DNA of 64,000 nucleotides from an uncultured virus (IMG/VR IMGVR_UViG_3300025769_000086) (Duplodnaviria > Heunggongvirae > Uroviricota > Caudoviricetes). Positions 11,826 to 63,248 of the stretch are shown here, one piece after another; position 1 is the stretch's first letter, and the number at the start of each line of letters is the position of its first letter. Location: the IMG/VR virus record IMGVR_UViG_3300025769_000086. One strand, 5' to 3'. The position numbers were made by a program, and so were the translations under genes. A model generated the notes under the pieces. The model made no database searches. It was given only the letters and a program-made list of their open reading frames with translations, and was not told the DNA's origin.

Positions 11826-11826
11826 G

Positions 11827-23800: not shown

Positions 23801-26800
23801 TAGACGGTTGGAAGAATGAATCTTTGCAAACTTCATATGAATTACACGATAAGACACTTTTCTTCCATGTAACTAAAATGGGTCATTCTCATACACATCG
23901 ATATCCTACAGTGTATACTCATACTTCCGGTATAGAAACTGATACAGTATCCGTATCTAGTTGGAATGCAACAACTAACGCTTTAGTCATAGATGCTACA
24001 CTGAATACTAACGTATTTAATGCAGGTTTTGGTACTAAAGAGGTAAAAGATAGTAGAAAGTTCTTAAGAGTGTATAATCCAACTACTGATGAAGGTGTTG
24101 TTTGTTCTTACACTTCACAAGGTAGCACAACACTTACCGTAGTAGGTGATGTAGACTTTGCTACGTTTATGGCTGGACAGACTGTAACTGACCTCAAAGT
24201 AGTTCCTTCTTACTATGTACCTGCTGGTAGTGCTAGATTCTTTGCTGCTCGTAGAATGCGTGACCATGCTGAAGTAAGCGGTAGTTCTCCTGATATGGCA
24301 CATACTCAGTATACTGGTAATGAAACGGTAGCCTATAACAGATATAGTAAACCAGTACTCACGCCAATGCCTTATCCTAGAATGGGGCATCACTTTGTTA
24401 CTCCAACAATGCCTATGCTGCCCGGTCACTGGTCACATCCAGCGTATCAAAGTCTTTACAAGAAACATCGTGCTCAACAAAGATTGCAGAAAAAATTCTT
24501 AGATAGTGCAACAATACAAGATGTTTACGACACTGAAGAAAAGAAAACTAACACTACGTTAGTTGAAGATTTTATTAATCCCTTAGAATCAGAAATAAAC
24601 TTTAGTGGAATAAATGCTGCCCCTAGTGGTCCTAGTGACATTCATGGAGGTGCATTCACTCTAATGTTTGAAACTGCTATCAAATACGATGGTTACGGTG
24701 TTTTAGCCTCTACAGGGTTAGGCGGAGATATCAATAAAGTAGGTGGACACACTGTTGTTTTAGAGGCAGCAGCATACTATACGTTAGGATATCATTTTCC
24801 TGACCCTGCTGAAGTAGGTGCATATCAAATTATTATACAACCTAATCTACATGTCAACCAAATACGTGGTTACAGTGCTAACACACAATCTGTTGGTAAA
24901 GGTATGACATATCAACAAGTCAATACAGTAGTCGGTATTGCTGACCATAGTTCACAAACAGGGGCTATAAGTTTGATTTTAGAAAAAGCCACTGATGCAG
25001 ATGTAAGGGGTTGTGAAATTTTTATTAACGAAACAATGTTAGATGTAAGCCCGGATTATGGTAGTCAATTTACAAATATACCTCCTTTATTACTTTACAA
25101 TCCATTTGGTGTTAACTTAAATGAAACTCCTTCATTTACTAGACAAGGATTTCCTTATTCACCTATGTTTTCTGACGCTACACCTGCATATACTTTGAAT
25201 ATTCCATGGTGGACTATACTTTTTGATAATATAGATTATAATTCTAGTAATTATATTACAGATTTAGATGATTATAGTAATTATATAGGTATATCTCAAT
25301 ATGCACCTCATAATTATTATCAATTTAGTAAAAGTACTTATGGGAGTATAGGAAATCAATTAACAATACAAGGATATCCTTCAATATATCCAAATATATA
25401 TTCTCGTACTTTACAAAATATATCTTTAATACCTCAATGTACTGTAATATCTTTTTCACAAGGTGATGGTACTATAACAGTAGATGATGCAAGCGTTTTA
25501 CCTAGAACACCTCTTTTCGGTCAAAAATTAATATATCAGGCTGAAAATGGTGCTACATATATCAGAGAATATATTCGACGTTCTGGTGATGCTCGTGATG
25601 AAATTAATTTACCTAATACAATACATCTTAATGTTAATAATGATGCGTTTTGGGATAATTTATTTGCCGGTGCTGTTATTTCATTAACTACAACAGGCTC
25701 TCTTAACGACCCGTATACTCATTTAATAGATAAGAAAAAGAATGTTTTTGCTCACTTTTTGCCGGATTTGATTAATGGTAGTCAGGATACTACATCTCTA
25801 CATCTACCCGATGCTTTCCTTTGTAAATCACATCCAAACTTAGGTAGACCTTACACATATTTTTCTGATGATGATTCTAGGGCTTGGAATGGTAATGCTG
25901 TAGATGCTGCTATGTATAATTCTCTACCTGAACATTTTGAAACATTCCATTATTTCGCTGCATCCTATTCTATGAGTTATGGACCATTTTACATGGATAT
26001 TAAGTCTCCCAACACTACTAAAGATGGGTCTGTAACGTATAATAGCGATAATACCGATGTTGGTGATGATGGTGGCAATATCACTTATCATAGATTATGG
26101 CCGTGTGGTAGTCGTGGAGGTCCACAAGCAAGTAGTTTAGATGAATACATGATTGCTGTTTTATCATGGCACTATCCCGGCGAACATGGTAGTTTAGATT
26201 TCAATATTAGCGATAAAGGGTATGATAGTAGCAGTAGTGGTAGTTATACTGACAGTTCAACAAAAGGTCTTAGATTAGGTTGGGAGGGAGGTACAGGTGC
26301 TAGAAGTAGTACTGAAAGACGAAGTTACGGTTATAGAATAGCGTTAAGACAGGCTTTAAACAAACCTAGATGGGGAATTCATAGTCTTAGATACTTTTCA
26401 GAGATTGCATCTGGGTCATCTGCAAGTGGTAATGCAGTGTTAACAACTGATTATCACTCCGGTCCACTTGTACAAGAATTCAAGTATGGTGTAATGAATG
26501 ATGCACCTACTTGGATTTACGGTGGTGGAGGCTCAGATACCTCTAATGTGGGTGCTTTAGGGCAAACCTATGTAGGTGTAATGGAAACTGCTACTAACTT
26601 TACAGGTATGTTAGGAATAGATAAACCTGAGAATCTTGTTCGCTATAGTGATGGTCGCAGAATGACAAGACCATACGGTGCTCCTGTGCGTACTATACGC
26701 AATCCTGCTGGTACTCGTAGGGATTGGTGGGGTGATGGCGAAGGAAAGGGCATAGAACGCCTCTCTAAAGCCTCTGAGTACTATCTGATAGATTGGTGGG

Positions 26801-28380
26801 CAAACGAGCGTGGAGAGGACGTTAGACGTGCTCCTGTGCGTGGATTTGGTATTAGACCAGCGTGGGATTGTGGTGATGCCTACGAATATGATAGAACTAA
26901 CAACAGAAGTCCGTATGATAGAGTTTGGAACAATGGTAAACCTATCTTTAACATGAAGGGTATAGTTAACCTTAGTACTGGTGCGGTTAGTATTAGTTCA
27001 GGTTACACTATTCCAAGATTTGGCGGTACTGATAATGATGCTAATCTAAACGGTAATGACAATGATTTAGTTGATGTATTTGCACCTACACATGCTATGA
27101 GGATTGGTGATATGGGTAATGGTAGAGGGGTAAGGTATCCTACTCACTTCAATGAAGACATTCTTACAGCACTTTCAGCACCTGTAGAAAAGACTGGTAT
27201 GGTACTAAGTACACATACAGCAGAACCTCTATTCGGTAAAGGGTTGTTACGCCCCCGTAACGCTGTACTGCAAGCCGATGAACTACCTAGAGGAATCAGT
27301 GATACGCTAGATATTTCAGACGATGGATTGCTAAAACCGGAGGCTACAGTAAGTCCAAGGACAGAAAAAATTGTAGGAACATCCGTTCATGTGGATGCAA
27401 TATCAAGAAGTAGCCCTAGAATCGGTGTAGATGGCGATATTTTAAGTGGTGTTGAAACGAATCATATTGTTATTAATACAGAGGCTCACAGTCTACATAC
27501 AGACAGGAATATTGGTCAAAGAATCGTGCTTGAAGGGGCTTTACAGCCCGATATTGGGAATGGTAACACTTTATCCTTAACTGATTTAAATTTAACAACT
27601 ATATCTTTTGCACGTCAAAGTCGTGGTGCTCCTATAAATTCTGCATTAAGATTCACTCATACACAACCATTTAGACCGTATGGTGGCGTTTATATTATGG
27701 AAAGTAAAGTACATGCAGGATTGTTTGATGATACAGGATGGGGTAGAAATAATTTAGCAGGTGTAGAAAAAACTACTAACCCATATCAAAATAGTACTTT
27801 AAAATTAAATACAAAACGTAATAACCAAAATGATAAAAGTGTTAAATTTATGTTAAAAAGTATAAAACTATTAGATAATAAACATATACAATTATTTAGA
27901 TTAAATAATGATTTACATAGTAGTTCTCCACAATATGCATTAAATTATTTATATTCTACAAGTGCTGGAAAATATGGTTTATTTAATTACGAAGTACCTA
28001 CTACAAGTGCAAATACACCTTATGCAACTGGTATAGTACCAAATACTAATGGTCCATATCATCCGGTATTTTTGTTTGATAGTACAGGTTCTAATTTTGA
28101 AATACCCGATTGTTTTGGTCCTAAATTATTAGGTTCTAGTGTAAGTGGTTTTGATAACACTTCTTTAAGTGAAGCGGTAACAAGACTTGTTATTAGTGAA
28201 AATACTTTACAACACCATCGTTCAGATGCTGCTAGAAGGAGGCAAGAATTAGATACTGATGATGCTGTGACTGGTTTAGATTTCACAGTAAAACCTAGAT
28301 TTAGTCAGTCTTTACACCCTAAAGGACATAAAGGAGATGTAACTTTTGGTACAAGTGACCACAGTGGAGATGGTGCTTAA
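11827..28380 (+). CDS. Giant virion protein (~5,517 aa) with N-terminal LamG/concanavalin-A-like domain
   Basis: Single 16.5-kb ORF; ATG 11827 (MPVIS) directly after the upstream stop; AFFFDG..ITIEAWV.P..HVIATFN..VQLYING..F.G.M lectin signature. Confidence 0.8.
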   Translation: MPVISTTNHAFFFDGVTDSIIIPQGNSSTDNTSRGLFNSNPNSGSDNILSLTDEITIEAWVVPDCGGVIVEKENCFSLSLGNVDTPGPAVFNLNLLDTEKNEIETIQLTTAYLTSNGYDGTIFPPSTFTGIHDSYNRFNSSYDDATTLNINHRPLMHVIATFNSKKVQLYINGILMAEQTLYNDKFILLKNNNPIFVGGKGGKFRGIMEAIHLCTSFTNDMVQGEVPTVKDDTLLLFRFEEPIAPIESVYPLNLSASADSTTIYLSTTNAASLATELTGSSQTSGTIDFTISPYSSGNYTITQSTKTATTSHSVPHVPYNLLLNPNGINLDTLKPSQKPPERVRLESINIDTGALTISSIHLDFATNSNGKRGLLHAYSELDKPKFIVLGADLLIDSGTSRPYQPPHFSSQAIDRTGQMVIDESDLENHGFVFSSNMATTVNDTDNPFAALWPTTLDEGYQIGHSGRHIKNHVKGHTFLRMLPRAEREIIDLKGGGQVDLVDVVYDNTREGIKDQIPVNSEVDVYRDAGTYDIKNVINSSTVTAVYNDFQDVTVSDGKEKLIALGGTTFDYRPFMLKGQVPTYGTTPDANTRKHHLRPSKESRVALLHIPLLRSTYNHAPFIEVHYNAIDLTGASMNSYDGSTRVNTAQPLLMVEKTVPASNTAFVNGDTTAYLYDIIVSQISSLGSLTLYSPGGYVEFDSLESDNVFAVNELVGDNSEGYDADDDLDESYTPANFTPYAQGLVGNSPPKIVLESSSQNESHPSIFNKVYFPKIETSKNLTTSSNITRIEPEVNVGSPSDGQFDTGVSGVSSSIHEFFDVIDNIMDVDNPSVADMALIIQPCDRTRTNQLAHIKHALDDSNDVNQMSLLYLLNRAVIRGIKETNDEDGSFTIIECEGIFTPFVSQSIDFKGKGSPDSHIVKEIEPNAPVVTVTLGGPGQGAVDTKPTYDESKLSRLPFSSRRSYSVRADYLNTTSGGSITVSPLNNHSNDMKSWGTYGFPKVGYVYFEDGSKARYQSKSGNTFTFQSGAADIGSGYYVAHDGTEFTFIKRLLRYIGYISNSDSTILQINRTLYSEPDFGDESLIDNGSTVNDRMFQKMNGVNHDYQLGTQFASTRALAEIPFFDNQFFGKHVGPNNSFKIHLDATMTAHSYNPSPVGKRPIDLPPADREVESAYSFGDNNPFTSTVIESLSGNNLVVKDINIFPTPEVAVSYQQITNDTTSRYRKVFLPSGDWAFYSAITENTKTLTLVYPSANFRQNAIAGTPVTVGGPNTNDGAIVLASDSFTPSSEYEDRSNTYYDSASVKTQGGNVDYGMRQYVSAVEFKEGPETNPHAEKIQTKRASAVIGSVNVIGTTATRGSILEITLSDEDMELFPDIGIDNLSDLVTGTGETFYEVQCVHPSSKKLLKFHYYGTLNKYNNFDITVGNSGFTVQGDNTSIILYYYEGFTTAQALAGNNTYPDFSVLAGEKMTLVGKRRRVFYDNFVSTKSSITKNIASNVHEKMGIFNELVANVKIDTNIAITAYSTTNKTVTVNPVDDVGLFDLSGLNVRKGDVLFAYKTSSTEERYATIGTVDSIAVHSDSSVVITLSDSDLKAIANVTDYKLGVGCDDFDDVDAILNKTWVNPYASGGLRNGDTIWGNMSYNNPHATEGLFFKSRGVLNEAQVWTGFNNGEGNLNSNPRDSIPLENFLIGNTCLETARNFAQHVNKTIEENYKSLGLTAAEAPTVAYVDPYLSNEGHARVLLYDVAHDREFIAFQDLHMQVQSELQTTHIGWNRYVVKDTDTTRTDLHSYLASYNGSSPSAWTTQIDVTNGYPSQNRFIRSTQQSKFIESAYAHDLPNKQAYNLTSNYISSTNTTPKYNRYSRLYGKGHGHFVHTEYSLQGASSGYTFSNSLPPQTTSHVSISKIADDYHKLSRRKGNDFISQLIKIRNATTACSFRDPSTFFDTPDGTRVIPAFLSLKGIRSETLSLDNHEESRLQHLPQWKDMGFVRRLSIDAGSIGLKTRNSLEAAEEIVRTINQYAALNARLSDGSSAHDPSPFWDTKQSFSSAQKGTHMGYLRAHIGRAVTDRNGVNGWTVVIHSTVPGASGRNFCVWLDNSQGQTEYQPEFIIGHGGRWRNFWALPEDIQGENMHPAPMPLNKHGRPFAPITTLQQYLEDENEENVIAVTDYGTDEEHTIQSVSDVISGQMHNTSIPKSFESEGSPSTLIQGLRTGKSAIARVNFGGLVATGVPGFTDVAGKWGYGTFSTEDKARYGNNVASSYSSHVSNAEKIKLAKGESKRDLYGFRFEDHLGNNYGVRFIYRERENTRGGRESFVKKTEDLPSTISQEICVFFNDKDVSQGGFTIGKNMSGSGDATGMLDTGDATNPVIETWTGNLWNAVNAPEATVRVNVTENTNESKLKIVGLEPFDASFTTDGKLNYLGFPKNGGLLQISDIDGTGNANVGKVFHYTHQDGSYFYGITPSVADWNITNDPYIISPVLNRTTLVTDELMAAVTAAAINATSPTTFDCTHMYTTDGKTFGEWGVKPDSIVITPFSNDGKYLSESFSASVHPDLGIQAAHLEFGEQKSISIDLNVDDDNLEGVISIATPNHIVTDAKLDLGKKVDCGYIPRTLLQIVTKSKGRHTNTPTPVFVNSTNNPVDTTAWKNNLNGVTFTRSSGDHILPKIDSPQFRFDSNSSWGSQRLDGVTNAELWNFLIPSDSSTASGMKAFGEKKRAYFVDDSAPFLVCSMIVQSQQGADSEKKLIFNTNTGINLPSSAPGNSQILTLFGDERAREFAGLRTLGSVFSEPITFFKGGKSSPDHSVPVFFGGGFTGVTLDVNDGTTNDYSSFYTHPYASGPTGTAGIQNANEISTSFAMLDCNAMFAFFPGTPLCNQHRGSLMPPFFNQDNMLTPDLDRGGTSYTRGVVKAKPIPLVMRFAHPTARYEDHRDGTDNKTTYMIFGPGQAFPFTGVHDSTGTENVNEPFSGRIITSGNTWSRVPRFTGNKQAFPNHITNTDGDYLPEDITYYNANTAYHWKAIVNWETPAGHPRRTMYQRPAHGRHYGQIYTITDGSSTGSQVNGVMPLRHTPAVGFGITMGADTVFHMDGGLHAGGSWLDNQLTFNPVHPKKNTRIVGGNSSTTWTRDNQIHPTAFRVAGPLTGRILDYSGSETVSSSDSKLEYIVVDATRCQNGEELATVLGAAINAFPGAGALKSLGGTHMPSMGNAMRQDRYGWVDTGAIGTYDTTNKFVESATTTNRDLLENLPASGWLKSAIDTVDNANSNTQSACYHAKEILVVDAAAGTFKARFRLAQHKKAAANGAFDVNTSPDGNLFVWSKAGTIRFNNEDDSTRDHMTQVHFSGIVDAVDRTKPIGAVGWAGERYSYLNSLKVGTEGYGAGLGAHHSMLSFAPYGTASTMITTLSQLPHTYPLFDTPESVPPIDGVVADLDNYLDSFYSGGFKIAGASTRSYSLIQTDSATTHHNYSNTPINFNKTNGQTSSSEILPDTLSQPVGLYGSAFLVVSYESESALIAKYDRDGITATGDWLQIHGVSSDAITYAGTTLWDERFHGQDRFIAPANAGPNVEALIVHDMVVPKSTAFESDVTWVDTLFPTGATKHMHGSVSSDLELENATPDRAKTGDLIYDLDYSAGSYNLEPETAGPVESITVSATGSGYSTGFAATTGGNGSGCRVNVVSVSTGALNSVTLASAGTGYEVGDVLTVAGGSGGTVTVGRINNLVERNVASHHHTTSYQANKSATYWMGDVNAYQIYENSAIKNFNTENVVWKRMDGGNLSLPAINARGLGAVPFMTRVASNTAYTTGEKIFGNVRFSFETTNSAMLPILQAQELSHPQLAARYPLKVENVLQIPNEEIQFDSINVLDDSGQVHKIEGGSPFGTIIRGYRLIEDRTTKGTAPSLANSGKPSNLKITLPNPDSIPGNIVVRSGFDPIQAYQNETFGSGGMLHADLGVSAPSSDNKLERFFDNTVKGPRQAPNYENHNWEHIDPLTYKSTLDGWKNESLQTSYELHDKTLFFHVTKMGHSHTHRYPTVYTHTSGIETDTVSVSSWNATTNALVIDATLNTNVFNAGFGTKEVKDSRKFLRVYNPTTDEGVVCSYTSQGSTTLTVVGDVDFATFMAGQTVTDLKVVPSYYVPAGSARFFAARRMRDHAEVSGSSPDMAHTQYTGNETVAYNRYSKPVLTPMPYPRMGHHFVTPTMPMLPGHWSHPAYQSLYKKHRAQQRLQKKFLDSATIQDVYDTEEKKTNTTLVEDFINPLESEINFSGINAAPSGPSDIHGGAFTLMFETAIKYDGYGVLASTGLGGDINKVGGHTVVLEAAAYYTLGYHFPDPAEVGAYQIIIQPNLHVNQIRGYSANTQSVGKGMTYQQVNTVVGIADHSSQTGAISLILEKATDADVRGCEIFINETMLDVSPDYGSQFTNIPPLLLYNPFGVNLNETPSFTRQGFPYSPMFSDATPAYTLNIPWWTILFDNIDYNSSNYITDLDDYSNYIGISQYAPHNYYQFSKSTYGSIGNQLTIQGYPSIYPNIYSRTLQNISLIPQCTVISFSQGDGTITVDDASVLPRTPLFGQKLIYQAENGATYIREYIRRSGDARDEINLPNTIHLNVNNDAFWDNLFAGAVISLTTTGSLNDPYTHLIDKKKNVFAHFLPDLINGSQDTTSLHLPDAFLCKSHPNLGRPYTYFSDDDSRAWNGNAVDAAMYNSLPEHFETFHYFAASYSMSYGPFYMDIKSPNTTKDGSVTYNSDNTDVGDDGGNITYHRLWPCGSRGGPQASSLDEYMIAVLSWHYPGEHGSLDFNISDKGYDSSSSGSYTDSSTKGLRLGWEGGTGARSSTERRSYGYRIALRQALNKPRWGIHSLRYFSEIASGSSASGNAVLTTDYHSGPLVQEFKYGVMNDAPTWIYGGGGSDTSNVGALGQTYVGVMETATNFTGMLGIDKPENLVRYSDGRRMTRPYGAPVRTIRNPAGTRRDWWGDGEGKGIERLSKASEYYLIDWWANERGEDVRRAPVRGFGIRPAWDCGDAYEYDRTNNRSPYDRVWNNGKPIFNMKGIVNLSTGAVSISSGYTIPRFGGTDNDANLNGNDNDLVDVFAPTHAMRIGDMGNGRGVRYPTHFNEDILTALSAPVEKTGMVLSTHTAEPLFGKGLLRPRNAVLQADELPRGISDTLDISDDGLLKPEATVSPRTEKIVGTSVHVDAISRSSPRIGVDGDILSGVETNHIVINTEAHSLHTDRNIGQRIVLEGALQPDIGNGNTLSLTDLNLTTISFARQSRGAPINSALRFTHTQPFRPYGGVYIMESKVHAGLFDDTGWGRNNLAGVEKTTNPYQNSTLKLNTKRNNQNDKSVKFMLKSIKLLDNKHIQLFRLNNDLHSSSPQYALNYLYSTSAGKYGLFNYEVPTTSANTPYATGIVPNTNGPYHPVFLFDSTGSNFEIPDCFGPKLLGSSVSGFDNTSLSEAVTRLVISENTLQHHRSDAARRRQELDTDDAVTGLDFTVKPRFSQSLHPKGHKGDVTFGTSDHSGDGA

Positions 28381-37500: not shown

Positions 37501-39644
37501 TACTATGGCGTTTTCAAGATAGTGGTAATAATAGTGCAAGTGGTGGATTCTTAACTGCCGCACCATATCCTAAAATTGATATAAATAAAAGTTATAGAAT
37601 GTCTGTATGGATAAAAAGGAGTCATCTTACAGAAGGTGCTTACTACATGGGCATATACGGTATGGATGATACTAATGGAAGTAACGTAGGGTTACAAGAT
37701 GTAAGTAGAAGGGGGACATGTGATGGTGCAATAACGACCACAGGTACTTTTACTGCTGATTTCTCTAGCGGTAGTGCCACTCTTACAAATATTAGCATAA
37801 ATACTAATTTATTAGCAACAGGAATGTCTTTGTTTGATGTAGCAGATGGTACATTCGATGGAATACCCGACAACACTACTATTCAATCAATAGATTCATC
37901 TTCTCAAATAACCATGAGTGCTAATGCTACAGCCACAAGTACAACTAGACCTGTTAATTACGGTAAAACAAGTATTACGTTGGATTCCGGTCATAATTTA
38001 CTTGATGGTAATGGTAGCACGACAAGATATGCAGTGATAAATAACGTAGATAGAATATCTTATACTGATATAGATAACAATGTTTTGACAGGTATTCCAT
38101 TAACCGGAGAGTATGCTATAAGCCAAGCACATGCCGATAATGCTAAAATAATGCAGTTAGAAACTAACGCTTATTTCATGAGTGGTGATTTACCGGAAGT
38201 AGATAAGTGGTATTTAGTAGTAGGTTATGTTCAAGGTCAAGGGGATACAGATTACACAGATAGAGGTGCGGTATATGATGGTGAGACAGGTAATAGGGTA
38301 GGTACTTGCGGTAATTTCCAATGGTGGTCACAATCTACATATGTTAAAAATAGAGTTTATATGTTTTACAGTGATGACAATCCTGAACAAATTCAACATG
38401 CTTTTGGTCCACGTTTTGAAGAAATAAGTGATGCTCCACAGATAAGCACTCTTCTAGGTGGAAAAATAACAACAGGTATGACGATTAAAAATGATGTATC
38501 AACTGCGACTCCTACAAGTGGTTATGTTTCACTCGGAGAGTATGCGGGTGCATTAGAGGTGACTACTGAACACAGTTATCTCCGTTTAGGTGCAACAAAT
38601 GGTAGTTATAACCATATACAGGGAGGAAATGCAAAATTCTATTTCAATAAACCTTTAGTTATAGATGGTGGAAATACATCGGGTAGTGCTTACCAAATTT
38701 CTTCTTACTCTTCTGAAGATTTAGTGTTAGCAACTCAAGATGGTGCAGAAAATAGACTAACAATAAAATCCGACACAGGTAATATAGGAATAGGAACTAC
38801 AAGCCCTTCCGCAAAATTACAAGTTCTTCAAAATAATGCCGCATGGACTATACTTGCGGGTGCTGATTTAAGTAATCCAACTTTAACTGATAATACTAGA
38901 AAATTTATGAGATTAGGTATGCCACATTATGATACTGATGAAGAAAACTTTTCTCTAATAACAGGTGATGCTGATAATGGTCAAAACAAGTTATTTATAG
39001 GTGGTGGAACAAGTGTTGGGAATGCGGCAACTGATATTTTCTTCAATACTGCGGCTAACTCAACTACAACTACCGGAACAACAAGAATGACAATAAAAGG
39101 TAGTGGTAATGTTGGAATAGGCGTTACCGCACCTTCTGCAAAATTAGAGGTTGCAGGTGAAATTAAAACTTCGTTAGGTAACATCAACAGTTGTGTTTCA
39201 TTTGTTTATAACAGAAGTGACATGGATTCCGGTGCAGTAAATCTAAAAGCAGTAGCATTTGATGGTTCTTCATCACAAAATCATTGGGGATATATTATGC
39301 CTAAATCGGGAACAGTAAAATATTTAACATTAAACACTAGAAATCATACAGTAACAAGTACAAATGAACAAACTTGGAAAATAAACAATAACAACAATAA
39401 TTCTAGTTCGGGAGAATTTTTCCAAATTGCAGTAGCAAAAGGTGCAACTCAAGATAATACAGGAGTCAGTGGAGATGCTACAATGGAATTAACACAATCT
39501 CCTCATTCAAGTACAATATGGAGAGGTTCAGTGGTTGTAAACCACACCTTTGATGCAGGAGATGAAATTAGAATACAAAGAACAAATGCCAACAGTGTTG
39601 ACATGGGAGATACTGTTGGTGTTATATACGTGGAGTTTGATTGA
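34545..39644 (+). CDS. Long modular tail fibre / receptor-binding protein (1699 aa)
   Basis: Nine GIG(T/V)xxP junctions delimiting ~94-109-aa modules; followed by a fibre chaperone gene. Confidence 0.8.
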   Translation: MVTYTPFKALHGAKIEDDGNAEINVERYSGANIRIQSQASAGRIETTNAHELWLGANGSGRIEIQSGGLVSIPGNLTVSGTFNATLATAAQTNITSLGSLSSLDVNGDATVSGNLSLDGSNKELRFYEGANYVGFEAPALSADQIWVLPASDGSANQALTTDGSGNFQWSSASSIAGAGSNLSLANGTNNRIVTAVDGSNLNGEANLTFDGSTLTVAGNMLVNNHGSLKANGSGSLLLGNTNSGVIKVHGDTGSSIVEGYGNHLILQTVRDSDDIIFRVNAGGTDSDSTVVEAMRIHGPDANIGIGTTSPSTELHLSGASHPSIRVTGTDNAGADPAIELLGTADDFTEGGQLWYDNGTGVLHLASIYNNDAADIQFHTKVAADRSTSNVRMTIAGDGNVGIGTTSPEYKLDVTGSLRILPTISSHAGTAIRIGPQDNDIDVTLLRVDGNGGGAGTGNSGESDDSNYGFSLKYMGSGTGVNNRYALWMDNSDATALEAMTVLQDGKVGIGTASPDYTLDVAGNIGVDQFIYHNGDTDTYLNLQTDDARMVVGNDIAWWYDEGAASKLHLSWNGEADVEIGNAGGTPDFFFGGSQGSYNGKMGIGTTSPDSQLDISSASTATLRLSNSDTSLTEGQITGEIIFYQDDDSGSADGITGRIGMRSSKRSDGTYYGNAGDMGFFVAGSGNYSTASQNADLEAMSIRAGGNVGIGTTTPDYELDVAGDIGINSYIRHNGDADTYIKFDTDGIRLVAGNDLALHYEEDSTSKLHLSYNGEADVEIGNAGGTPNFFFGGSQGSYDAKMGIGTSTPSSLLHIHGDMADGKQGILITRNDTSTADTNLLGAIGFDSSDGNIPSKVTEASAGIAAYAAEDHSTGDKGGDLVFFTSPINQNDDTDALERMRIDSEGKIGIGTNDPCDLVHIAGYGRVFTETAGYLDGNIFNSYSWSPMSDLTNPPAGFTINGGTDENSIVYGQTPLGSDDYYYARGLLWRFQDSGNNSASGGFLTAAPYPKIDINKSYRMSVWIKRSHLTEGAYYMGIYGMDDTNGSNVGLQDVSRRGTCDGAITTTGTFTADFSSGSATLTNISINTNLLATGMSLFDVADGTFDGIPDNTTIQSIDSSSQITMSANATATSTTRPVNYGKTSITLDSGHNLLDGNGSTTRYAVINNVDRISYTDIDNNVLTGIPLTGEYAISQAHADNAKIMQLETNAYFMSGDLPEVDKWYLVVGYVQGQGDTDYTDRGAVYDGETGNRVGTCGNFQWWSQSTYVKNRVYMFYSDDNPEQIQHAFGPRFEEISDAPQISTLLGGKITTGMTIKNDVSTATPTSGYVSLGEYAGALEVTTEHSYLRLGATNGSYNHIQGGNAKFYFNKPLVIDGGNTSGSAYQISSYSSEDLVLATQDGAENRLTIKSDTGNIGIGTTSPSAKLQVLQNNAAWTILAGADLSNPTLTDNTRKFMRLGMPHYDTDEENFSLITGDADNGQNKLFIGGGTSVGNAATDIFFNTAANSTTTTGTTRMTIKGSGNVGIGVTAPSAKLEVAGEIKTSLGNINSCVSFVYNRSDMDSGAVNLKAVAFDGSSSQNHWGYIMPKSGTVKYLTLNTRNHTVTSTNEQTWKINNNNNNSSSGEFFQIAVAKGATQDNTGVSGDATMELTQSPHSSTIWRGSVVVNHTFDAGDEIRIQRTNANSVDMGDTVGVIYVEFD
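35454..39134 (+). repeat. Nine copies of fibre junction motif GG(A/G)ATAGG..
   Basis: Copies begin at 35454, 35745, 36066, 36348, 36666, 36948, 37266, 38787 and 39114. Confidence 0.9.
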
Positions 39645-39646
39645 TT

Positions 39647-39877
39647 ATGAGTGAAATAACGGCAGAAGAAACGGCTTGGGATATACTAAGAGAAGATAGA
39701 AATGCACTATTACGTGGCATAGATAAATATCAAGGTGTATTATTTTATGAATCACTAACAGATACACAAAAACAAGAACTGATTACATATAGACAGGCAC
39801 TTTTAGATTTACCTGCGGCATATGATAATCCCGAAGATTGTTATGCTAATTTACCAACAAAACCTTCTTGGATTTAA
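39647..39877 (+). CDS. Tail fibre assembly chaperone (Phage_tail_APC-like)
   Basis: WDILREDRNALL...YRQALLDLP...PTKPSW signature directly after fibre gene. Confidence 0.8.
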   Translation: MSEITAEETAWDILREDRNALLRGIDKYQGVLFYESLTDTQKQELITYRQALLDLPAAYDNPEDCYANLPTKPSWI

Positions 39878-39951
39878 TTCTTTTTTCTAAGAGCCAACCA
39901 TACAAAGAACTTATTTGATAAAGTCCAAAACGCTTTATCTATTTTGTTCAT
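39874..39951 (-). CDS. Micropeptide e, 25 aa (MNKIDKAFWTLSNKFFVWLALRKKN)
   Basis: Hand translation; AAGGT upstream; its TAA overlaps the + strand TAA of the chaperone gene. Confidence 0.55.
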   Translation of the reverse strand: MNKIDKAFWTLSNKFFVWLALRKKN

Positions 39952-40003
39952 TAATCATACCTTCCAATATTATTTCCCAATAATCCCAATTAATATCATT
40001 CAC
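39935..40003 (-). CDS. Micropeptide d, 22 aa (MNDINWDYWEIILEGMINEQNR)
   Basis: GTG start with AGGTGG upstream; overlaps both neighbours. Confidence 0.45.
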   Translation of the reverse strand: MNDINWDYWEIILEGMINEQNR

Positions 40004-40148
40004 GATTAATATTCCACCTATAGATTATATTACCAACAATCATGGTCATTGTGGCTATGAAGAATATTAATGAAAAAACCGGAGAATCTAAACTTACTGG
40101 AATATCACTTTCTAAAAATTTCATAGTATTGTCTATGTTAAAGTTCAT
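39996..40148 (-). CDS. Micropeptide c, 50 aa, one predicted transmembrane helix
   Basis: ATGA-coupled; hydrophobic stretch VFSLIFFIATMTMIVGNIIY. Confidence 0.6.
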   Translation of the reverse strand: MNFNIDNTMKFLESDIPVSLDSPVFSLIFFIATMTMIVGNIIYRWNINRE

Positions 40149-40228
40149 TCATCCCAACCTCTAAATGTTTCTTCCATAAATTCTTTTATCCACTTACATG
40201 ACCCGTTGTGATGTTTTCTATCTTTCAT
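40145..40228 (-). CDS. Micropeptide b, 27 aa (MKDRKHHNGSCKWIKEFMEETFRGWDE)
   Basis: ATGA-coupled at both ends; GAGG upstream. Confidence 0.55.
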   Translation of the reverse strand: MKDRKHHNGSCKWIKEFMEETFRGWDE

Positions 40229-40308
40229 TTAAAATCCTCTTCTGTTTTGCCAAACCAATTTAGAAAGGCTTCCCTCATGGGTTTATTAGTTATCCAACCT
40301 TTTGGCAT
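40225..40308 (-). CDS. Micropeptide a, 27 aa (MPKGWITNKPMREAFLNWFGKTEEDFK)
   Basis: First ORF of the coupled chain; ATGA overlap with b. Confidence 0.5.
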   Translation of the reverse strand: MPKGWITNKPMREAFLNWFGKTEEDFK

Positions 40309-40326
40309 GGTGTAAAAATTACACCA
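40308..40326. promoter_or_regulatory. Palindrome TGGTGTAA-AAA-TTACACCA, operator-like
   Basis: Perfect 8-bp arms with 3-nt spacer abutting the ATG of micropeptide a. Confidence 0.45.
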
Positions 40327-40514
40327 ACGGTTCTTCTATATTTCCCTTTCCTGCATCATAAGAAAGAGAGGGGGGAACAGCATCAGAGGAGAAAGAAGTA
40401 CCTCTGTTCTACGGCGGGTAATACACGATAAGATGTATAGAACGATGTTATAAAAGAAAATATGTTGCAAACTGTTTTTAAAATGTAGAAACCCCCGACA
40501 AACGCTAAGAGGTT

Positions 40515-40691
40515 TTATTTTATAATTTTTTTGAACACAGAATCTTCCCAAAGATGACCACATTCTCTACATTTCCAAATGTATACTCTTGTTCTTTTTT
40601 CATCGTGAAATCTTCCAGAAATCCTGATAGGTATGTGTCTGTGGTTACATTTTCTACAAGATACTTTTAATCGCTCAGAAAGTTTTTTCAT
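40515..40691 (-). CDS. TFS/TFIIS C-terminal-like zinc-ribbon microprotein (58 aa)
   Basis: Hand translation: CRKC...RFHDEKRTRVYIWKCRECGHLWED; TAATG-coupled to the thermosome stop. Confidence 0.65.
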   Translation of the reverse strand: MKKLSERLKVSCRKCNHRHIPIRISGRFHDEKRTRVYIWKCRECGHLWEDSVFKKIIK

Positions 40692-42184
40692 TACTCCATG
40701 CCTCTTTTTGCAATAATGTCGTCAATTTTTAATATTGCAGTTGTAACTTCAGTTGCACTAAGAATTGCTTGTCTTACTAAATCACAGGGTTCAACAACAC
40801 CATCTTCCAACATATTTGTAATACCACCCTCTTCTACATTAACACCCATATGATAGTCACCATCTGATATAGCGTGTCTCATATCGAGAATTACATCCAA
40901 TGGGTCGTGTCCTGCATTTTCCGCTATGGTTGCTGGTAGTATTTCTAAAGAATCTGCAAATGCGTTAATAGCCATCTGTGCTCTACCCTCGACAGTATTA
41001 GCCTTCATTCTCAAATGATTAGCCAAAGCCGCATATGTAGACCCTCCACCTGTAACAATTTTCCCTCCATTTAATACCAAAGACACTACACCTAATGCAT
41101 CATCAAAACCACGAGCGACTTCATCAAGAGTAGAACTTGTTGCTCCTCTCAAAATTAATGTTGACTGATTAGATTCAACTTTTCCACTAACGAATAAATA
41201 ATTTATTTCATTAAACGTCTTTCTTTTTATTAGACCTGAAATCACATTCTCTATATCATCAGGAGTCTGTGCTATACGAGAACCTAATGCTAATCCTAAT
41301 GCTTTCATTGATGATTCAGGTACTCTTCTAACAATTGCTATATTTTGTTTTGCTAAGTAAGCAGCAACATCATCGGTAACTCCATCTCTAATGAACACCA
41401 CACCACCATTTGGTAACATATTACCAATTCTTTTTGCTTGTGTGAGTAAATCATCTGTGTCACTTTTCTTAAATGCGTTGTAACCTTTCATATCTACTTG
41501 TACTGTAACATTTTCTTCTCTCTTTACAGGTTCTAAACCAGTGTTAAGTAATATAACATTAGAAAGATTTTCTTCCTGTACTTCATAAACAAAATCTTTG
41601 TTGACTACAACACCGTTGAAGAAATAAGAATCAGATAATGCACCACCAGCCAATCCAACAACTTTTACTTTGTCTGCACTTCCTGCAACATTAACTGCTT
41701 CAACACATAGTTTAGACACTTGGTCTATTGCTGCTTCTAATGTTTTTCCAGTAACTGAGGTTTTTGCTATTTGTAATATTTCTTGTTCATTTGCTTCATA
41801 AGATAGTCGATTATCTAAGAAATCAATAGCCATAGTAGCCGCTTGATTATATCCTTTACATACTAAGTTAGGATGTAATCCTTTTGTGAAAAGATTTTCT
41901 GAATCTGCTAATAATTGACCTGCCAGTATTACAGTAGATGTTGTGCCATCATAACACAATGCTTCTTGTGTTTTAGCAATATCAACCATCATTTTTGCAC
42001 CGGGATGGCTAACATCTAATTCTCTTAGTATTGTTGCACCATCATTAGTGATTATTGTATCACCGCCAGCATCAACCATCATTTTATCTCGACCCATTGG
42101 ACCAAGTGTACTTTTGACAGTATCTACAATCGTTCTTGCTGCTCTTATATTATTTTGTAAGGGGTTCATTCTTTCATCTTTCAT
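40691..42184 (-). CDS. ths: Group II chaperonin (thermosome subunit)
   Basis: STLGPMGRDKM, ITNDGATIL, (Y)DGTTS, TLILRG, GGG, ILKIDD motifs. Confidence 0.95.
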   Translation of the reverse strand: MKDERMNPLQNNIRAARTIVDTVKSTLGPMGRDKMMVDAGGDTIITNDGATILRELDVSHPGAKMMVDIAKTQEALCYDGTTSTVILAGQLLADSENLFTKGLHPNLVCKGYNQAATMAIDFLDNRLSYEANEQEILQIAKTSVTGKTLEAAIDQVSKLCVEAVNVAGSADKVKVVGLAGGALSDSYFFNGVVVNKDFVYEVQEENLSNVILLNTGLEPVKREENVTVQVDMKGYNAFKKSDTDDLLTQAKRIGNMLPNGGVVFIRDGVTDDVAAYLAKQNIAIVRRVPESSMKALGLALGSRIAQTPDDIENVISGLIKRKTFNEINYLFVSGKVESNQSTLILRGATSSTLDEVARGFDDALGVVSLVLNGGKIVTGGGSTYAALANHLRMKANTVEGRAQMAINAFADSLEILPATIAENAGHDPLDVILDMRHAISDGDYHMGVNVEEGGITNMLEDGVVEPCDLVRQAILSATEVTTAILKIDDIIAKRGME

Positions 42185-44280: not shown

Positions 44281-44979
44281 ACGCCTTTTTGTTCTTTCAA
44301 TATGAACTGGTTCTTCACTTGTTAGAACATTCATTATTTTCTGTCTTAATGCTGGTCCTAAACCTTTTACATATTTCAACGACTCTTCAAAACACATTTC
44401 TTCAATACTGCCACACTCCGTTAACATTTTCTCTCCTGTTTCTCTTCCAATACCGGGTATAGCCATCAACATGTCTAATCTCACATCGTTTGTACTAACC
44501 CTTCTTATTGCCCTTGCACCATGACTAGATGCAGGTTTGTGTAATTTGTCGTGTAACTTTACAACAAACATAGCCGCTTCCGATTGATTTTCTGTAAAGA
44601 AAACCTGACATTCAAAATCACTCATTATTCTAGCAATAGTGCCTAGCAATTCGTTTTGTACTTTACTATATGTTACTTTGTAACCATTTCTTTTAGACAT
44701 CGCAACATGCTTTGCGATTGAACCGTGAATCAAAAGAAAGAATCTACTGTAGTTAGCATCTAAATTTTCTAATTGTCTCCAAAGGTGGCCGCTATGACTT
44801 GACATGAATAAATCACTAATTGATTTAGCCTCTATACATGCTTCGCCTAGAAGATAATCTCCTACTATCAAAGTTTTACGTACTACTGTCAATCCTTCTT
44901 TTTCTGCTCTCCTGATAATTGATTCGCAGAGAGTACCCCTTTCATTACTATCAATAAATAAATCCGGTTTATTTCGCAC
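44278..44979 (-). CDS. ERCC4/XPF (Hef-like) nuclease with HhH
   Basis: IDSNE, GDY, IEAKSISD (ERKxxxD-like), IPGIG and VKGLG HhH motifs. Confidence 0.85.
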   Translation of the reverse strand: MRNKPDLFIDSNERGTLCESIIRRAEKEGLTVVRKTLIVGDYLLGEACIEAKSISDLFMSSHSGHLWRQLENLDANYSRFFLLIHGSIAKHVAMSKRNGYKVTYSKVQNELLGTIARIMSDFECQVFFTENQSEAAMFVVKLHDKLHKPASSHGARAIRRVSTNDVRLDMLMAIPGIGRETGEKMLTECGSIEEMCFEESLKYVKGLGPALRQKIMNVLTSEEPVHIERTKRR

Positions 44980-45130
44980 CCTTTAACCTCCTTGTATTTC
45001 TTTTCCACACTAGATAACATGCACCACATCTAATTGTCTTAGGTTTATTATATCTCCATTGACCCTTAGTGTTGTATCCATTTAATTCAACTTTACAATC
45101 TTCACAATAAAATATTTTTTGTTCATTCAT
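44969..45130 (-). CDS. Zinc-finger microprotein (53 aa)
   Basis: Hand translation with CEDC...CGAC; ATGA-coupled to primase. Confidence 0.6.
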   Translation of the reverse strand: MNEQKIFYCEDCKVELNGYNTKGQWRYNKPKTIRCGACYLVWKRNTRRLKGAK

Positions 45131-47512: not shown

Positions 47513-47683
47513 TTAGTACCCCATATCCATTTTACTCGGAGTTATTCTAATATCCCCATTTTTAATTTTCATATACATCTCTACTGCCTCTTCTATACAA
47601 TTATGACAAATCATACCTTGACTACCGACAGTTTGCATTGCAATGGTAGTATTATACAGACTTGAACAACAACTACACTGCAT
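47513..47683 (-). CDS. C4 zinc-finger microprotein (56 aa, ClpX zinc-finger-like)
   Basis: CSCC...ICHNCI; GAGGAGG upstream. Confidence 0.6.
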   Translation of the reverse strand: MQCSCCSSLYNTTIAMQTVGSQGMICHNCIEEAVEMYMKIKNGDIRITPSKMDMGY

Positions 47684-47839
47684 CTATTCTTCCTCCTCAC
47701 ACGTACATTTATTTAATTCCCATTCTTCTATTTTCAATTCATCACCTATGTAACCCTGACACGATTCACATTCTTCTAAGTCACTGACATCTACATCAAA
47801 TGAATCAAAACCAACAACCATATGATTTTCCAAACTCAT
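47684..47839 (-). CDS. Acidic Cys microprotein (51 aa)
   Basis: CESC...CTC; ATGA-coupled. Confidence 0.55.
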   Translation of the reverse strand: MSLENHMVVGFDSFDVDVSDLEECESCQGYIGDELKIEEWELNKCTCEEEE

Positions 47840-47952
47840 GGTGAAGCCCCCGTAAGAGAAGGAACATAGTAGTAAAGAACTCTACCACATTTTTCACAAT
47901 TATCAATGAATTTGTCAGTGTGCCAGCCACATTTACAATACATTAAAATCAT
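47836..47952 (-). CDS. Zinc-finger microprotein (38 aa)
   Basis: CKCG...CEKCG; TGATG-coupled start at 47952. Confidence 0.55.
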   Translation of the reverse strand: MILMYCKCGWHTDKFIDNCEKCGRVLYYYVPSLTGASP

Positions 47953-48137
47953 CACTCTTCCTCCAGCATTATACATTTTTGCAAATAAATTGCTAGGTCC
48001 AAAGCCTCTTCCTGTGCATGGATTAACCATTCTTTACGAGATAAATCAGTTCTTTCCATTGTGGTATTATATTTATTTTCACCCAACTTTGCTCTTGCTT
48101 CTATTTTCTTTATTACTATATCTTCAATCTCACTCAT
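47952..48137 (-). CDS. Small MazG-like (all-alpha NTP pyrophosphatase-type) protein
   Basis: G..KY.TTMERTDL..EWL.HAQEEALD...Y pattern. Confidence 0.55.
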   Translation of the reverse strand: MSEIEDIVIKKIEARAKLGENKYNTTMERTDLSRKEWLIHAQEEALDLAIYLQKCIMLEEE

Positions 48138-52478: not shown

Positions 52479-53807
52479 TCAATCAAATTGTCCTAAGTCT
52501 GTATCTCCACCACTAACTCTAGGTCTAGCCCTTCTTTGGTTGGTGTAAATACCCATAACGGTTAACTTTGGAATTTTACTATTGTCTCTTTGTTGCATAC
52601 CTATTCTACCAAATATTAACACGGTAGATTTCTCAGCATACTCAAATCTTTCACCTTCACTGTCTACAAAGGAGAATGGATGAGTTAAATCGTAACATGC
52701 TGAAGAAACGTTACACAAGACTTCAGCACCATCTCCGCCACCATACGTACTTTGTAGTTCTGATGATGTAAGACTCAAACTGTATGATATACCGGATTCA
52801 TCGTATTCGGTTTCTCTTCCTTCTGTGGAAAGTCTGTTGACTGTTCCTTTTGTAATTACTAGTGGACCAACTTTACCTTGTCCATCTGCTGTTTGGAATG
52901 TTCTTAATCCACTTTCGTAAGCATCACCTAATTCTTCTATTCTAGTAAACATGTCTGTAAAGTCATCAGTAGTCCAAAATTTGAATGGCTCAAGTAAAGG
53001 TCTCATTTCAACTGGAACGAATTCATTCGTGTAATTTATGCTATCAACAAAACCACTGTTTGTTTCCAATACATCTTCAAAACCTGCTCTCGCATTATCA
53101 GAAGGTGGCTTTGCTTTGATAACACATGGTTGTCCTACGTTTAGAGAGCGTTCCATATCATCTCCTGTAATGTCTACTCGCCACATTTTTATGTCGCCAT
53201 TGTCAACAAATTCTTTTTGTTCGTTACCAAGGAAATATGCATACCTGCCCATTTGGATGTGAGGGTATGGATAACCTTTCTTTGATATGAAACAAATGTA
53301 TTGATTATTTCCAGCAGGAATACCCATGCTTGGTGTTTCTGTTATCATTTCAGATGTTTCAATAATTCCACCAGCAGTATTGATGACCCAATGACCATCT
53401 TGTTTTTCATAGACTCCACCTTTTCCATCTGACACAAACGCATTAGGGTCTTCTTTGTATTGTCTGACCATCCAATTAGCCAGCCCCTTTCTACGGTCTC
53501 CTGCTTTATTAGCAACACCTAAGAAATGACCAACGTAAGTTTGTGTTCCAACACCACCGCTTACTGTACTGCTTCTTAACATAGTAGCAAATTGTTCAGC
53601 CCAATCGAGAACTAAATCTTCATCTTCTTCCTGCCAGTTTTCACAACTATAATTAGTCTTGATATAATCAAAAAATCCTTCCTTTACAACAGGTAATGTT
53701 TCCCCTGTTCTTTCGGAGTGTTTCTCCAATCTCTCCATTACCCCTTGAGGCAACTCTTTCGTCATATTTTCTTCTTTCATTTTTTTAAACGGGTTTTCAT
53801 CATTCAT
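52479..53807 (-). CDS. Putative ssDNA-binding protein (RPA-like)
   Basis: Acidic 442 aa with OB-like strands (VITKGTVNRL, VLIFGRI) and acidic-aromatic tail DTDLGQFD; between RFC and ATPase. Confidence 0.45.
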   Translation of the reverse strand: MNDENPFKKMKEENMTKELPQGVMERLEKHSERTGETLPVVKEGFFDYIKTNYSCENWQEEDEDLVLDWAEQFATMLRSSTVSGGVGTQTYVGHFLGVANKAGDRRKGLANWMVRQYKEDPNAFVSDGKGGVYEKQDGHWVINTAGGIIETSEMITETPSMGIPAGNNQYICFISKKGYPYPHIQMGRYAYFLGNEQKEFVDNGDIKMWRVDITGDDMERSLNVGQPCVIKAKPPSDNARAGFEDVLETNSGFVDSINYTNEFVPVEMRPLLEPFKFWTTDDFTDMFTRIEELGDAYESGLRTFQTADGQGKVGPLVITKGTVNRLSTEGRETEYDESGISYSLSLTSSELQSTYGGGDGAEVLCNVSSACYDLTHPFSFVDSEGERFEYAEKSTVLIFGRIGMQQRDNSKIPKLTVMGIYTNQRRARPRVSGGDTDLGQFD

Positions 53808-53937
53808 TTTTTTTCATCTCCTTCAAGATTTTTTTAACAGTATCATGTAAATTCATGATTTCTAATCTATTCTCCATTATTGCACTACGCAATGTTATTC
53901 CTAATTCTTCAATGTCTATTGCTCTTATATTACTCAT
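53800..53937 (-). CDS. Hypothetical microprotein (45 aa)
   Basis: ATGA-coupled to RFC; fills the gap. Confidence 0.5.
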   Translation of the reverse strand: MSNIRAIDIEELGITLRSAIMENRLEIMNLHDTVKKILKEMKKNE

Positions 53938-56527: not shown

Positions 56528-56921
56528 TCACCTGTGGTAAAAAACCATATGTTGCATCTTCCCAAGCACTTAAAGCAACGTTTGGGTCTTTTGTTTTTGC
56601 TTTCTTGATGTCAAATGGATTAGCAAGTACCCTAGTGAATTGAACAAAGTTTTGATAATCTTTCAAACCTTCTTCTAAAATTCTTTTACCTATGTAATTT
56701 TGTAAGTAATAACATATCTTTTTCAAATCTATCTTCTTGTTAAAACTCTTTTTCCATTCTATACCCATGAAGTCTGATTCGTTTAACAAAATTAGTATGT
56801 CTTGTGGTACTGTTATTCTTTGTCTTATTCTGAAACCGAGTTTACTATCAACTCTCTTCTCCATCCAAGTATGAAATCTAACTTCTCTCAGAAACATACC
56901 AATTGCAATTTCTTCATTCAT
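56508..56921 (-). CDS. Hypothetical protein, possibly LAGLIDADG-fold derived
   Basis: GGAGG RBS; IAIGMF..E..F...KLGFRIRQRITV weakly resembles the LAGLIDADG N-terminus. Confidence 0.35.
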   Translation of the reverse strand: MNEEIAIGMFLREVRFHTWMEKRVDSKLGFRIRQRITVPQDILILLNESDFMGIEWKKSFNKKIDLKKICYYLQNYIGKRILEEGLKDYQNFVQFTRVLANPFDIKKAKTKDPNVALSAWEDATYGFLPQVIESDVI

Positions 56922-57016
56922 CGGTTAACCTCCTTACATTTAGGGCATTTACGTGTTCTATCATGACCCCAATGGACATCAGCCTTACACCATCTGCATA
57001 GTAAATTATTCCTCAT
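56918..57016 (-). CDS. Zinc-finger microprotein (32 aa)
   Basis: CRWC...CPKC; ATGA-coupled. Confidence 0.55.
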   Translation of the reverse strand: MRNNLLCRWCKADVHWGHDRTRKCPKCKEVNR

Positions 57017-63247: not shown

Positions 63248-63248
63248 T

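Follow-up and report, generated by a model that had tools for sequence, protein, structure and literature searches.

The window analysed here, the whole 64,000-nucleotide (nt) stretch of the uncultured virus record IMGVR_UViG_3300025769_000086, carries at the distal end of its minus-strand (replicative) arm a cassette of five micro-genes preceded by a conserved inverted repeat, termed here the dyad. Judged by its genes and layout, the virus is a thermosome-encoding magrovirus, a tailed virus of the type assigned to Marine Group II archaea. The five minus-strand open reading frames (ORFs), o1 to o5, tile positions 39874-40308. The initial annotation had described them as coupled frames of 27, 27, 50, 22 and 25 amino acids (aa), joined by ATGA or short overlaps, in an apparently empty gap between the genome arms. 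All five are present with these lengths and overlaps; the gap was misjudged, as the cassette instead closes the minus replicative arm, where genes of 32-64 aa are common. The elements of the cassette and of the region ahead of it are:

40225-40308, minus strand: o1, 27 aa, ATG start, first gene, without a Shine-Dalgarno (SD) motif (predicted leaderless type)
40145-40228, minus strand: o2, 27 aa, ATG start; R..HHNG.CK invariant, C-terminal half acidic and amphipathic
39996-40148, minus strand: o3, 50 aa, ATG start; acidic N-terminal part, one predicted transmembrane (TM) helix, YRWN.N end
39935-40003, minus strand: o4, 22 aa, GTG start; acidic, NWDYWE..LEG
39874-39951, minus strand: o5, 25 aa, ATG start; basic amphipathic, IDKAFW..WLALRKK
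40309-40325, no strand assigned: dyad GGTGTA-ATTTT-TACACC, perfect in the window, core of a longer palindrome and candidate operator in the core promoter
40343-40336, minus strand: TATA-like box AAATATAG, ending 27 nt before the o1 ATG; putative promoter element

The o1/o2 and o2/o3 junctions are ATGA overlaps, while o3 and o4 overlap by 8 nt and o4 and o5 by 17 nt. The o5 stop codon (39874-39876) shares the tetranucleotide TTAA (39874-39877) with the stop of the plus-strand gene at 39641-39877, the stop-stop overlap with the final late gene that had been noted before. Motifs resembling ribosome-binding sites (GAGGA, GAGGT, AGGTGG and AAGGT) lie 6-10 nt ahead of the o2 to o5 starts, and only o1 is without one, in keeping with the earlier statement that most of the frames have such motifs; GGAGGT precedes other genes of the replicative arm. 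Full same-strand tiling by ORFs of at least 20 aa was found in none of 2000 dinucleotide shuffles and in none of 386 antisense windows of the plus arm.

Relatives of the cassette were drawn from three sources: a scan with the chaperonin (12 loci), a pair of degenerate DNA patterns built on the o1 and o4 motifs (50 loci on viral contigs) and the o4 pattern on metagenome contigs (at least 119 loci, mostly chance matches, with L080, L084 and L141 as the true relatives among the matches listed). In group A (the window, L001-L007 and L141), the order o1-o2-o3-o4-o5 is kept with every ORF intact. Group B (L008-L012), which consists of two distinct sequences, has o1, another 24-aa ORF replacing o2 and o3, and then o4 and o5. 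Groups C and D (L035, L046, L049, L050, L052, L058 and L062) have o2-o3-o4-o5 without o1; L084 groups with them, its record ending inside o5. Gain and loss of o2 and o3 occur jointly. The ATGA and short overlaps are retained in groups A-D.

Selection on these frames was estimated as the ratio of non-synonymous to synonymous differences (pN/pS), using Nei-Gojobori counts pooled over chosen pairs. The pooled ratio is 0.29 in frame versus 0.86 and 1.16 in the shifted frames, and the individual values are 0.06 (o1), 0.26 (o2), 0.33 (o3), 0.25 (o4) and 0.34 (o5). The shifted-frame ratios of o4 are also rather low (0.57 and 0.44), partly because o4 overlaps both of its neighbours. Third codon positions are the most variable columns in each of the five ORFs, and o5 differs from that of L005 by six synonymous and no non-synonymous changes. 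The o4 start is GTG in the window and ATG in L005, L008, L012 and L052. On the opposite strand, the five plus-strand ORFs of the region are all disrupted in close relatives, either by loss of the start codon or by new stops. A 75-aa minus-strand ORF across the spacer (40336-40563) was rejected as a candidate gene, its frame being broken by 17-nt and 1-nt indels in relatives. The initial annotation had staked its operon on conservation and dN/dS in relatives, and here the ORFs are kept with frame-specific constraint; the one frame break in groups A-D is in L008, where a premature stop shortens o4 by three codons. Since the ORFs are intact and coupled in relatives, have low in-frame pN/pS and vary at third positions, and since the plus-strand ORFs break, o1 to o5 are by these comparisons genuine genes, all of them protein-coding and under purifying selection. 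The cassette thus provides a clear case of ORFs of 22-27 codons under purifying selection in an uncultivated virus.

The cassette also proves to be part of something wider. Starting from o4, searches uncovered a protein family of 73-116 aa (alignment A1) and shorter forms (alignment A2), with the core DW.W.YW.AQ.EG....KP.WRDYL.TQ. The A2 profile, covering the 30-116 aa family, matched o4 at E = 4e-4 among 897 window ORFs and left o5 unmatched. At 22 aa, o4 lacks the second helix (KP.WRDYL.TQ), which is also absent from the other short forms of 25-40 aa. By its profile match, o4 is a minimal member of a DWDYW.AQ family of 30-116 aa that is specific to magroviruses. The long o4 family has 19 members among 1.84 billion representative proteins, all of 30-88 aa bar a doubtful 631-aa match, and none of the 19 is an informative fusion; AlphaFold2 predicts two helices for it, with a predicted local distance difference test (pLDDT) score of 64, which does not suffice for searching by fold.

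Scanning with A1 brought up 80 viral loci, of which 66 are distinct, on contigs of up to 118 kilobases (kb); as all 80 were retrieved via o4, they do not establish that o4 is universal at the locus. The layout is constant: a chaperonin or 53-aa TM gene is followed by a four-Cys zinc-ribbon gene and then by a run of very small ORFs. The order and content of the micro-genes vary by lineage, and the following modules recur:

Module o2: HHNG.CK; 16 sequences from several lineages, with R, HHNG, C, K and F invariant (alignment A3)
Module o4: W-rich motif, in short or long forms
Module o2p: W.W.MRKIG; the o5-like peptide is likewise seen
Module G: LLSMFE
Module H: C-terminal end ..WGRFRP
Module I: TM module of 40 aa
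Module J: TM module of 53 aa
Module K: 86-98 aa, often the first gene after the dyad; winged-helix matches below threshold (E = 0.036)

Modules G, H, I, J and K and the 53-aa TM gene are all absent from the window. The o3 family forms five clusters in 5.8 billion proteins, and its alignment (A4) has 20 invariant columns, with the hydrophobic core kept in 13 sequences. A copy of o1 lies in an unrelated viral contig (L015), where 26 of its 27 residues are identical (five synonymous changes and one non-synonymous) and where it sits in an unrelated run of small genes, coupled by ATGA to the next gene. Products of the small-gene runs at L015:400-4400 and L257:2248-3784 open with the common motif MSW.D/E-I-L/V-K, and it is among these genes that o1 is located in L015. 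An o5-like 28-aa ORF occurs at a different position in L207 (2819-2905; tblastn 1.7e-6). The o5-like and o2p peptides (L207:2819-2905, L059:2367-2474 and the 24-aa ORF of L012) have a common G-F/W-W-x-W...R-K pattern. From their sequences, o5-like and o2p peptides may be one family of basic tryptophan (Trp)-rich helices, of which group B has both. The idea that o4 and o5 are halves of a split longer gene was dropped because the family profile misses o5 and because L207 has its o5-like ORF beside a full-length o4 relative. The cassette was also rejected as a divergence hot spot among close relatives, as identity to L005 is 87-97% there versus 72-99% elsewhere in 9.5 kb.

Taken across these contigs, the cassette represents, for a single lineage, a micro-gene locus that many magrovirus lineages share in shuffled form. 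No paper on magrovirus promoters or small proteins was found in the library searched; supplements of magrovirus papers may list some of the ORFs. Set against that literature, the shared micro-gene locus, the single-copy dyad in a predicted core promoter and the selection on ORFs of 22-27 codons are new here. The outcome is a catalogue of micro-protein modules that recur and most of which standard gene calling would probably miss, its usual size limit being above the lengths of four of the cassette ORFs.

The DNA immediately ahead of o1 is as distinctive as the genes. A perfect palindrome, TGGTGTAA-N3-TTACACCA, spans 40308-40326, its final A being the A of the o1 ATG; together with AAATATAG, it bears out the earlier report of a palindrome adjoining the first ATG with a box about 30 nt upstream. 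The dyad at its core, searched as GGTGTA-N5-TACACC with at most one mismatch, occurs at 33 of the 66 distinct loci as a single match each (20 perfect and 13 with one mismatch). These 33 dyads lie 32-644 nt upstream of an o4-like match and always ahead of the micro-genes, and no other copy is found within the 350,691 nt of the 66 distinct loci. A search for further palindrome copies, as envisaged in the initial annotation, found exactly one perfect dyad in each of five long records (86-118 kb). Sites with one mismatch are as rare in these records as matches to a reversed-pattern control, and the counts of a two-mismatch search of whole records are likewise at the control level. In many lineages the locus can be recognised by the dyad, a candidate regulatory element that is defined by its sequence and present in single copy.

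Two further sites deserve mention. A near-copy with one mismatch (TAGTGTAAGCCTTACACCA, 58984-59002) was not accepted as a second operator because it is embedded in a 90-aa ORF and no TATA-like box is suitably spaced from it; the ORF in question is at 58888-59160 on the minus strand, the ATG of a 30-aa ORF follows immediately on the plus strand, and the near-copy is kept in a close relative. The L257 record (G008, 86 kb) has a one-mismatch dyad near 36852, about 25 kb from its o4-like gene, unlike other lineages.

The surroundings of the dyad were compared between the window and 21 loci related to it. In most lineages, an A/T-rich box (GTAAATTAA, GTAAAATAA, AAATATAG and similar) ends 5-10 nt ahead of the dyad. 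The first ATG is 0-4 nt past the dyad in 12 of the 22 sequences and 7-24 nt past it in the rest, several of which have an SD-like motif in between. Forms with 2-3 mismatches occupy the same place in groups C and D and in several other lineages. Half-site sequence is conserved without compensating pair changes, the variants differ mostly in the N5 spacer and the half-site centres are 11 bp apart. In archaea, the TATA centre lies about 26-27 nt before the transcription start, leaderless messages start at or a few nt from the ATG, and proteins bound near -17 to -1 block recruitment of the polymerase. The centre of the TATA-like box is 31.5 nt from the ATG in the window and 27.5 nt from it in groups C and D (predicted promoters), spacings that would suit a leaderless unit. 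The predicted start is therefore about 5 nt upstream of the o1 ATG and, with the TATA centre taken at about -27, the dyad would span approximately -17 to -1. This placement, together with the kept half-sites and their 11-bp spacing, favours a protein operator over a hairpin. The conservation of the dyad at this place across magrovirus lineages fits such an operator. A bacterial promoter and terminator scan gave counts at the level of shuffled sequence.

The features bordering the cassette are as follows:

40452-40460, minus strand: T-tract TTTTCTTTT after the zinc-ribbon gene, kept in groups A and B; probably where the upstream unit ends
39881-39886, plus strand: T6 tract, 4 nt past the stop of the plus-strand gene and reverse complement of the o5 KK codons; putative terminator
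40515-40691, minus strand: 58-aa four-Cys zinc ribbon, conserved upstream neighbour, its Cys pairs invariant in 19 of 19 lineages (alignment A6)
40691-42184, minus strand: group II chaperonin (thermosome), Pfam E = 8e-125
39641-39877, plus strand: tail assembly chaperone, 78 aa, last gene of the structural arm and convergent with the cassette; Pfam Phage_tail_APC, E = 7.9e-8, above the cut-off

The tracts TTTT and TTTTCTTTT follow the zinc-ribbon stop (40452-40483), and a hairpin and T8 take the equivalent place in those lineages that possess the 53-aa TM gene; oligo-T serves as a terminator in archaea. The initial annotation had proposed separate regulation, with which the upstream T-tracts and the TATA-like box and conserved dyad ahead of o1 agree. 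That the cassette is its own, separately regulated transcription unit is well supported by these sequence signals. The motif GGGGGTTTC(T/C)ACA lies just past the zinc-ribbon gene in the window (40484-40496), in L193, L207, L209 and L258 and in most of the chaperonin-type lineages shown. Rfam gave no match within 39000-41000 at E up to 1, and consensus folding of the 206-nt spacer in six sequences gave no compensatory change in any of 41 pairs; because none covary, a non-coding RNA in the spacer has no support. The zinc ribbon has Pfam matches under the cut-off and a model with a pLDDT of 78, for which the best Foldseek matches in the PDB are weak ones to TFS/Rpb9/TFIIS-type ribbons (E of at least 0.098). 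This weak likeness hints at a factor directed at RNA polymerase, a regulatory role being no more than a lead.

The assignment of the virus rests on the arrangement of the window as a whole. Long ORFs occupy the plus strand as far as 39877, and the minus strand from 64000 down to 39874, and cumulative GC skew is at its maximum at the arm junction. A Pfam scan of 35 window proteins, excluding a 5539-aa ORF that was too long, identified an HK97/SU10-type capsid protein, a tail tube protein and the tail assembly chaperone in the plus arm, and a family B DNA polymerase, an RFC-like AAA ATPase, ERCC4, a PD-(D/E)XK nuclease and the group II chaperonin in the minus arm. PMC5434244 describes magroviruses as abundant and as infecting archaea that form a dominant group in the ocean, with a two-module layout and, in magrovirus groups A and D, thermosome genes. 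The window is placed among thermosome-type magroviruses because its gene content and two-arm layout match that description; the archaeal-type replication genes, chaperonin, HK97-type module and two arms that characterise Magrovirales are all found in it. Relatives of the window occur among IMG/VR contigs of 86-118 kb, and a close relative is a 96-kb record, compared with the 64-kb window. The GenBank phage collection holds no DNA match to the window and, at the protein level, only distant GroEL matches. The 5539-aa ORF is a single frame of the structural arm (11761-28380, plus strand). Further minus-strand ORFs of 32-64 aa, mostly SD-led and several with paired CxxC motifs, fill other 'gaps' of the replicative arm (44969-45130, 47513-48137, 53800-53937, 56918-57441, 60160-60354, 61513-61662, 62168-62314 and 63077-63413); small genes are thus a general feature of the window genome.

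The peptides themselves differ in character. Trp makes up nine of the 151 residues of o1 to o5 versus 1.31% of 18,789 residues in the larger window proteins (binomial p = 1.9e-4). The o1 peptide is near neutral and non-hydrophobic, o2 is hydrophilic with a basic HHNG.CK head and an acidic amphipathic tail, and o4 is hydrophilic with a net charge of -4. In o3, one stretch reaches a Kyte-Doolittle mean of at least 1.6 over 19 residues and is followed by an eight-residue tail (YRWNINRE) whose two R, one E and free C-terminus leave no net charge. The o5 peptide has a net charge of +5 and a hydrophobic moment of 0.43. The initial annotation had inferred a membrane-active cassette; the part of this that stands is o3, with its TM helix, and o5, with its basic amphipathic helix, while o1, o2 and o4 do not show such properties, so that membrane action is predicted for o3 and o5 only. 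A TM-like micro-ORF is found in the downstream ORF chain at 43 of 73 loci having a dyad with at most three mismatches, a rough count in that the chain overruns the operon and the dyads with 2-3 mismatches include false ones. ESM Atlas returned nothing above 0.84 for o3.

By these comparisons, the cassette is a real operon of translationally coupled micro-genes. The explanation favoured for it, with rather more confidence than doubt, is that it has its own archaeal promoter, a dyad operator and products directed at the cell envelope. Transcription would begin at the TATA-type promoter about 5 nt before the o1 ATG to give a nearly leaderless messenger RNA, from which o2 to o5 would be translated via coupling with the help of short SD motifs. 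The dyad would most likely bind a factor, acting as a dimer, that keeps the polymerase from being recruited before a set stage. The last part of this explanation, that the products act at the host cell envelope, is more tentative, with doubt slightly prevailing. Here, o3 would insert as a single-pass membrane protein, o5, as a basic helix rich in Trp, would rest on the surface of the membrane, and the soluble o1, o2 and o4 would partner or tune them; the likely purpose would be to exclude competing viruses or to help with egress. The envelope proposal is drawn from the TM helix of o3, the basic amphipathic character of o5, the Trp enrichment and the frequent, non-universal TM modules at the locus.

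Several observations weigh against the favoured explanation. Group B, L184, L185, L187 and L219 have no TM micro-ORF, and o1, o2 and o4 are hydrophilic. Pfam (E up to 0.01) and PHROGs (E up to 1) give no family match for o1 to o5, and across Pfam, PHROGs and ESM Atlas the five show no homology to a known membrane-active, lysis or exclusion protein; nor did Pfam find a helix-turn-helix (HTH) in any of them. Perfect symmetry of the dyad is not essential, as it is degraded by 2-3 mismatches in groups C and D and others. Divergence of the locus among close relatives is no higher than in other mosaic parts of the genome, and the likeness of the zinc ribbon to RNA-polymerase-associated ribbons is only weak (E of at least 0.098).

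A first alternative, unlikely and framed by analogy, is an acr-aca-like operon for anti-defence or host takeover, in which an inverted-repeat operator would let a repressor cap the expression of small, fast-turnover inhibitors. The fixed position of the locus with its shuffled content of small genes is what such an operon would lead one to expect, as are the conserved inverted repeat inside the promoter, the transfer of o1 as a unit into an unrelated viral contig and the weak winged-helix matches of the 86-98 aa K module in other lineages (E = 0.036, below cut-off). Binding of Aca repressors to inverted repeats in acr promoters is documented (PMC8633003 and PMC9410906). The window has the candidate inverted-repeat operator in its promoter but no HTH gene in the cassette, TM and amphipathic modules are frequent at the locus, and PHROGs and Pfam yield no match. 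Moreover, four of the five products are of 22-27 aa, far under typical Acr sizes.

Lysis offers a second alternative, which is doubtful: o3 would be a holin-like pore former, o5 a membrane-destabilising helix and the others timing partners, with the operator setting the time. The 50-aa single-pass o3 and the basic amphipathic o5 suit these roles. The earlier statement that no other lysis genes are evident agrees with the Pfam scan, in which none was recognised among the 35 proteins of the 64-kb window, the record of the relative being 96 kb. According to PMC10791045, no holin has been identified in a tailed archaeal virus and what carries out their egress is uncharacterised. For Poseidoniales viruses, PMC11706807 reports holin candidates in Adrikavirales only. 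Holins are, however, described with a charged C-terminal tail in PMC10791045, whereas the o3 tail has eight residues and no net charge; o3 shares a predicted TM domain with holins but neither their tail nor a family match in Pfam or PHROGs. No lytic enzyme gene is adjacent, the neighbours being micro-genes, the zinc ribbon, the thermosome and the tail assembly chaperone, with no gene for an enzyme degrading a cell wall or S-layer. In addition, the operon is in the replicative and not the late arm, and group B keeps o1, o4 and o5 without o2 and o3. The broader proposal that the locus is the missing module for egress or envelope remodelling, with operator-timed Trp-rich micropeptides that breach or reprogram the host membrane, is similarly improbable. 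Its set would change by lineage around single-pass o3-like peptides, interfacial o5-like peptides and soluble partners and, if it were true, it would represent a lysis system made solely of peptides too small for gene callers. With the egress of tailed archaeal viruses described as uncharacterised in PMC10791045, the micro-gene locus gives handles that can be tested.

The remaining alternatives concern the DNA itself. The palindrome could be an RNA or single-stranded DNA hairpin, such as a 5' stem hiding the o1 AUG, a terminator or a processing site, rather than an operator. A stem of 6-8 bp does fold, its right arm in the window takes in the A of the o1 ATG, and several variants have complementary bases (A..T, G..C) as the innermost pair of the spacer. 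This reading has little likelihood given that the half-sites are kept without compensatory stem changes (none of the 41 predicted pairs covaries in the six close sequences), that no T-run follows the dyad and that the box constantly 5-10 nt upstream puts the predicted start at the 3' end of the dyad, leaving most of it untranscribed. Finally, that the ORFs are chance frames or decaying remnants of a longer gene, with the DNA element alone mattering, is very improbable and, on the comparisons made, largely refuted: although o4 is far shorter than its relatives of 45-116 aa and four ORFs fall under the usual gene-caller limit, purifying selection is frame-specific in all five, starts, stops and coupling are kept over several lineages, short forms of the o4 family (25-40 aa) recur in many lineages, and chance fails to give the tiling in 2000 shuffles.

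The favoured reading, an operon of coupled micro-genes under a dyad operator, resembles several known systems in part. Archaeal operators located between the TATA box and the transcription start have the same placement as the window dyad with its 6-bp half-sites one helical turn apart; the viral case differs from archaeal promoter-proximal repressor sites in having one perfect copy per genome, and is here a candidate site recognised from sequence alone. Like acr-aca operons, the magrovirus locus has small exchanged genes at a fixed position, a dedicated promoter with a conserved inverted repeat and one gene (o1) found as a unit in another virus. By contrast, it has no HTH regulator, its products are mostly of 22-27 aa and in part predicted to be membrane-directed, its host belongs to the archaea and its predicted promoter is of the TATA-type leaderless kind. 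In its very small overlapping genes, one of them for a predicted single-pass membrane protein and another for a peptide that is basic and amphipathic, the magrovirus cluster recalls phage lysis cassettes (holin, antiholin and spanin); it is without an adjacent endolysin-type gene, a charged tail on o3 or a holin family match, and resides in the replicative arm and not the late arm. Superinfection-exclusion and moron genes of tailed phages encode small membrane proteins and have a promoter and terminator of their own. Like them, the magrovirus operon is by its signals an autonomous unit at a module boundary, with content that varies among relatives and small products in part predicted to be membrane-directed; it differs from them in comprising five peptides and in having a promoter element conserved over many lineages.

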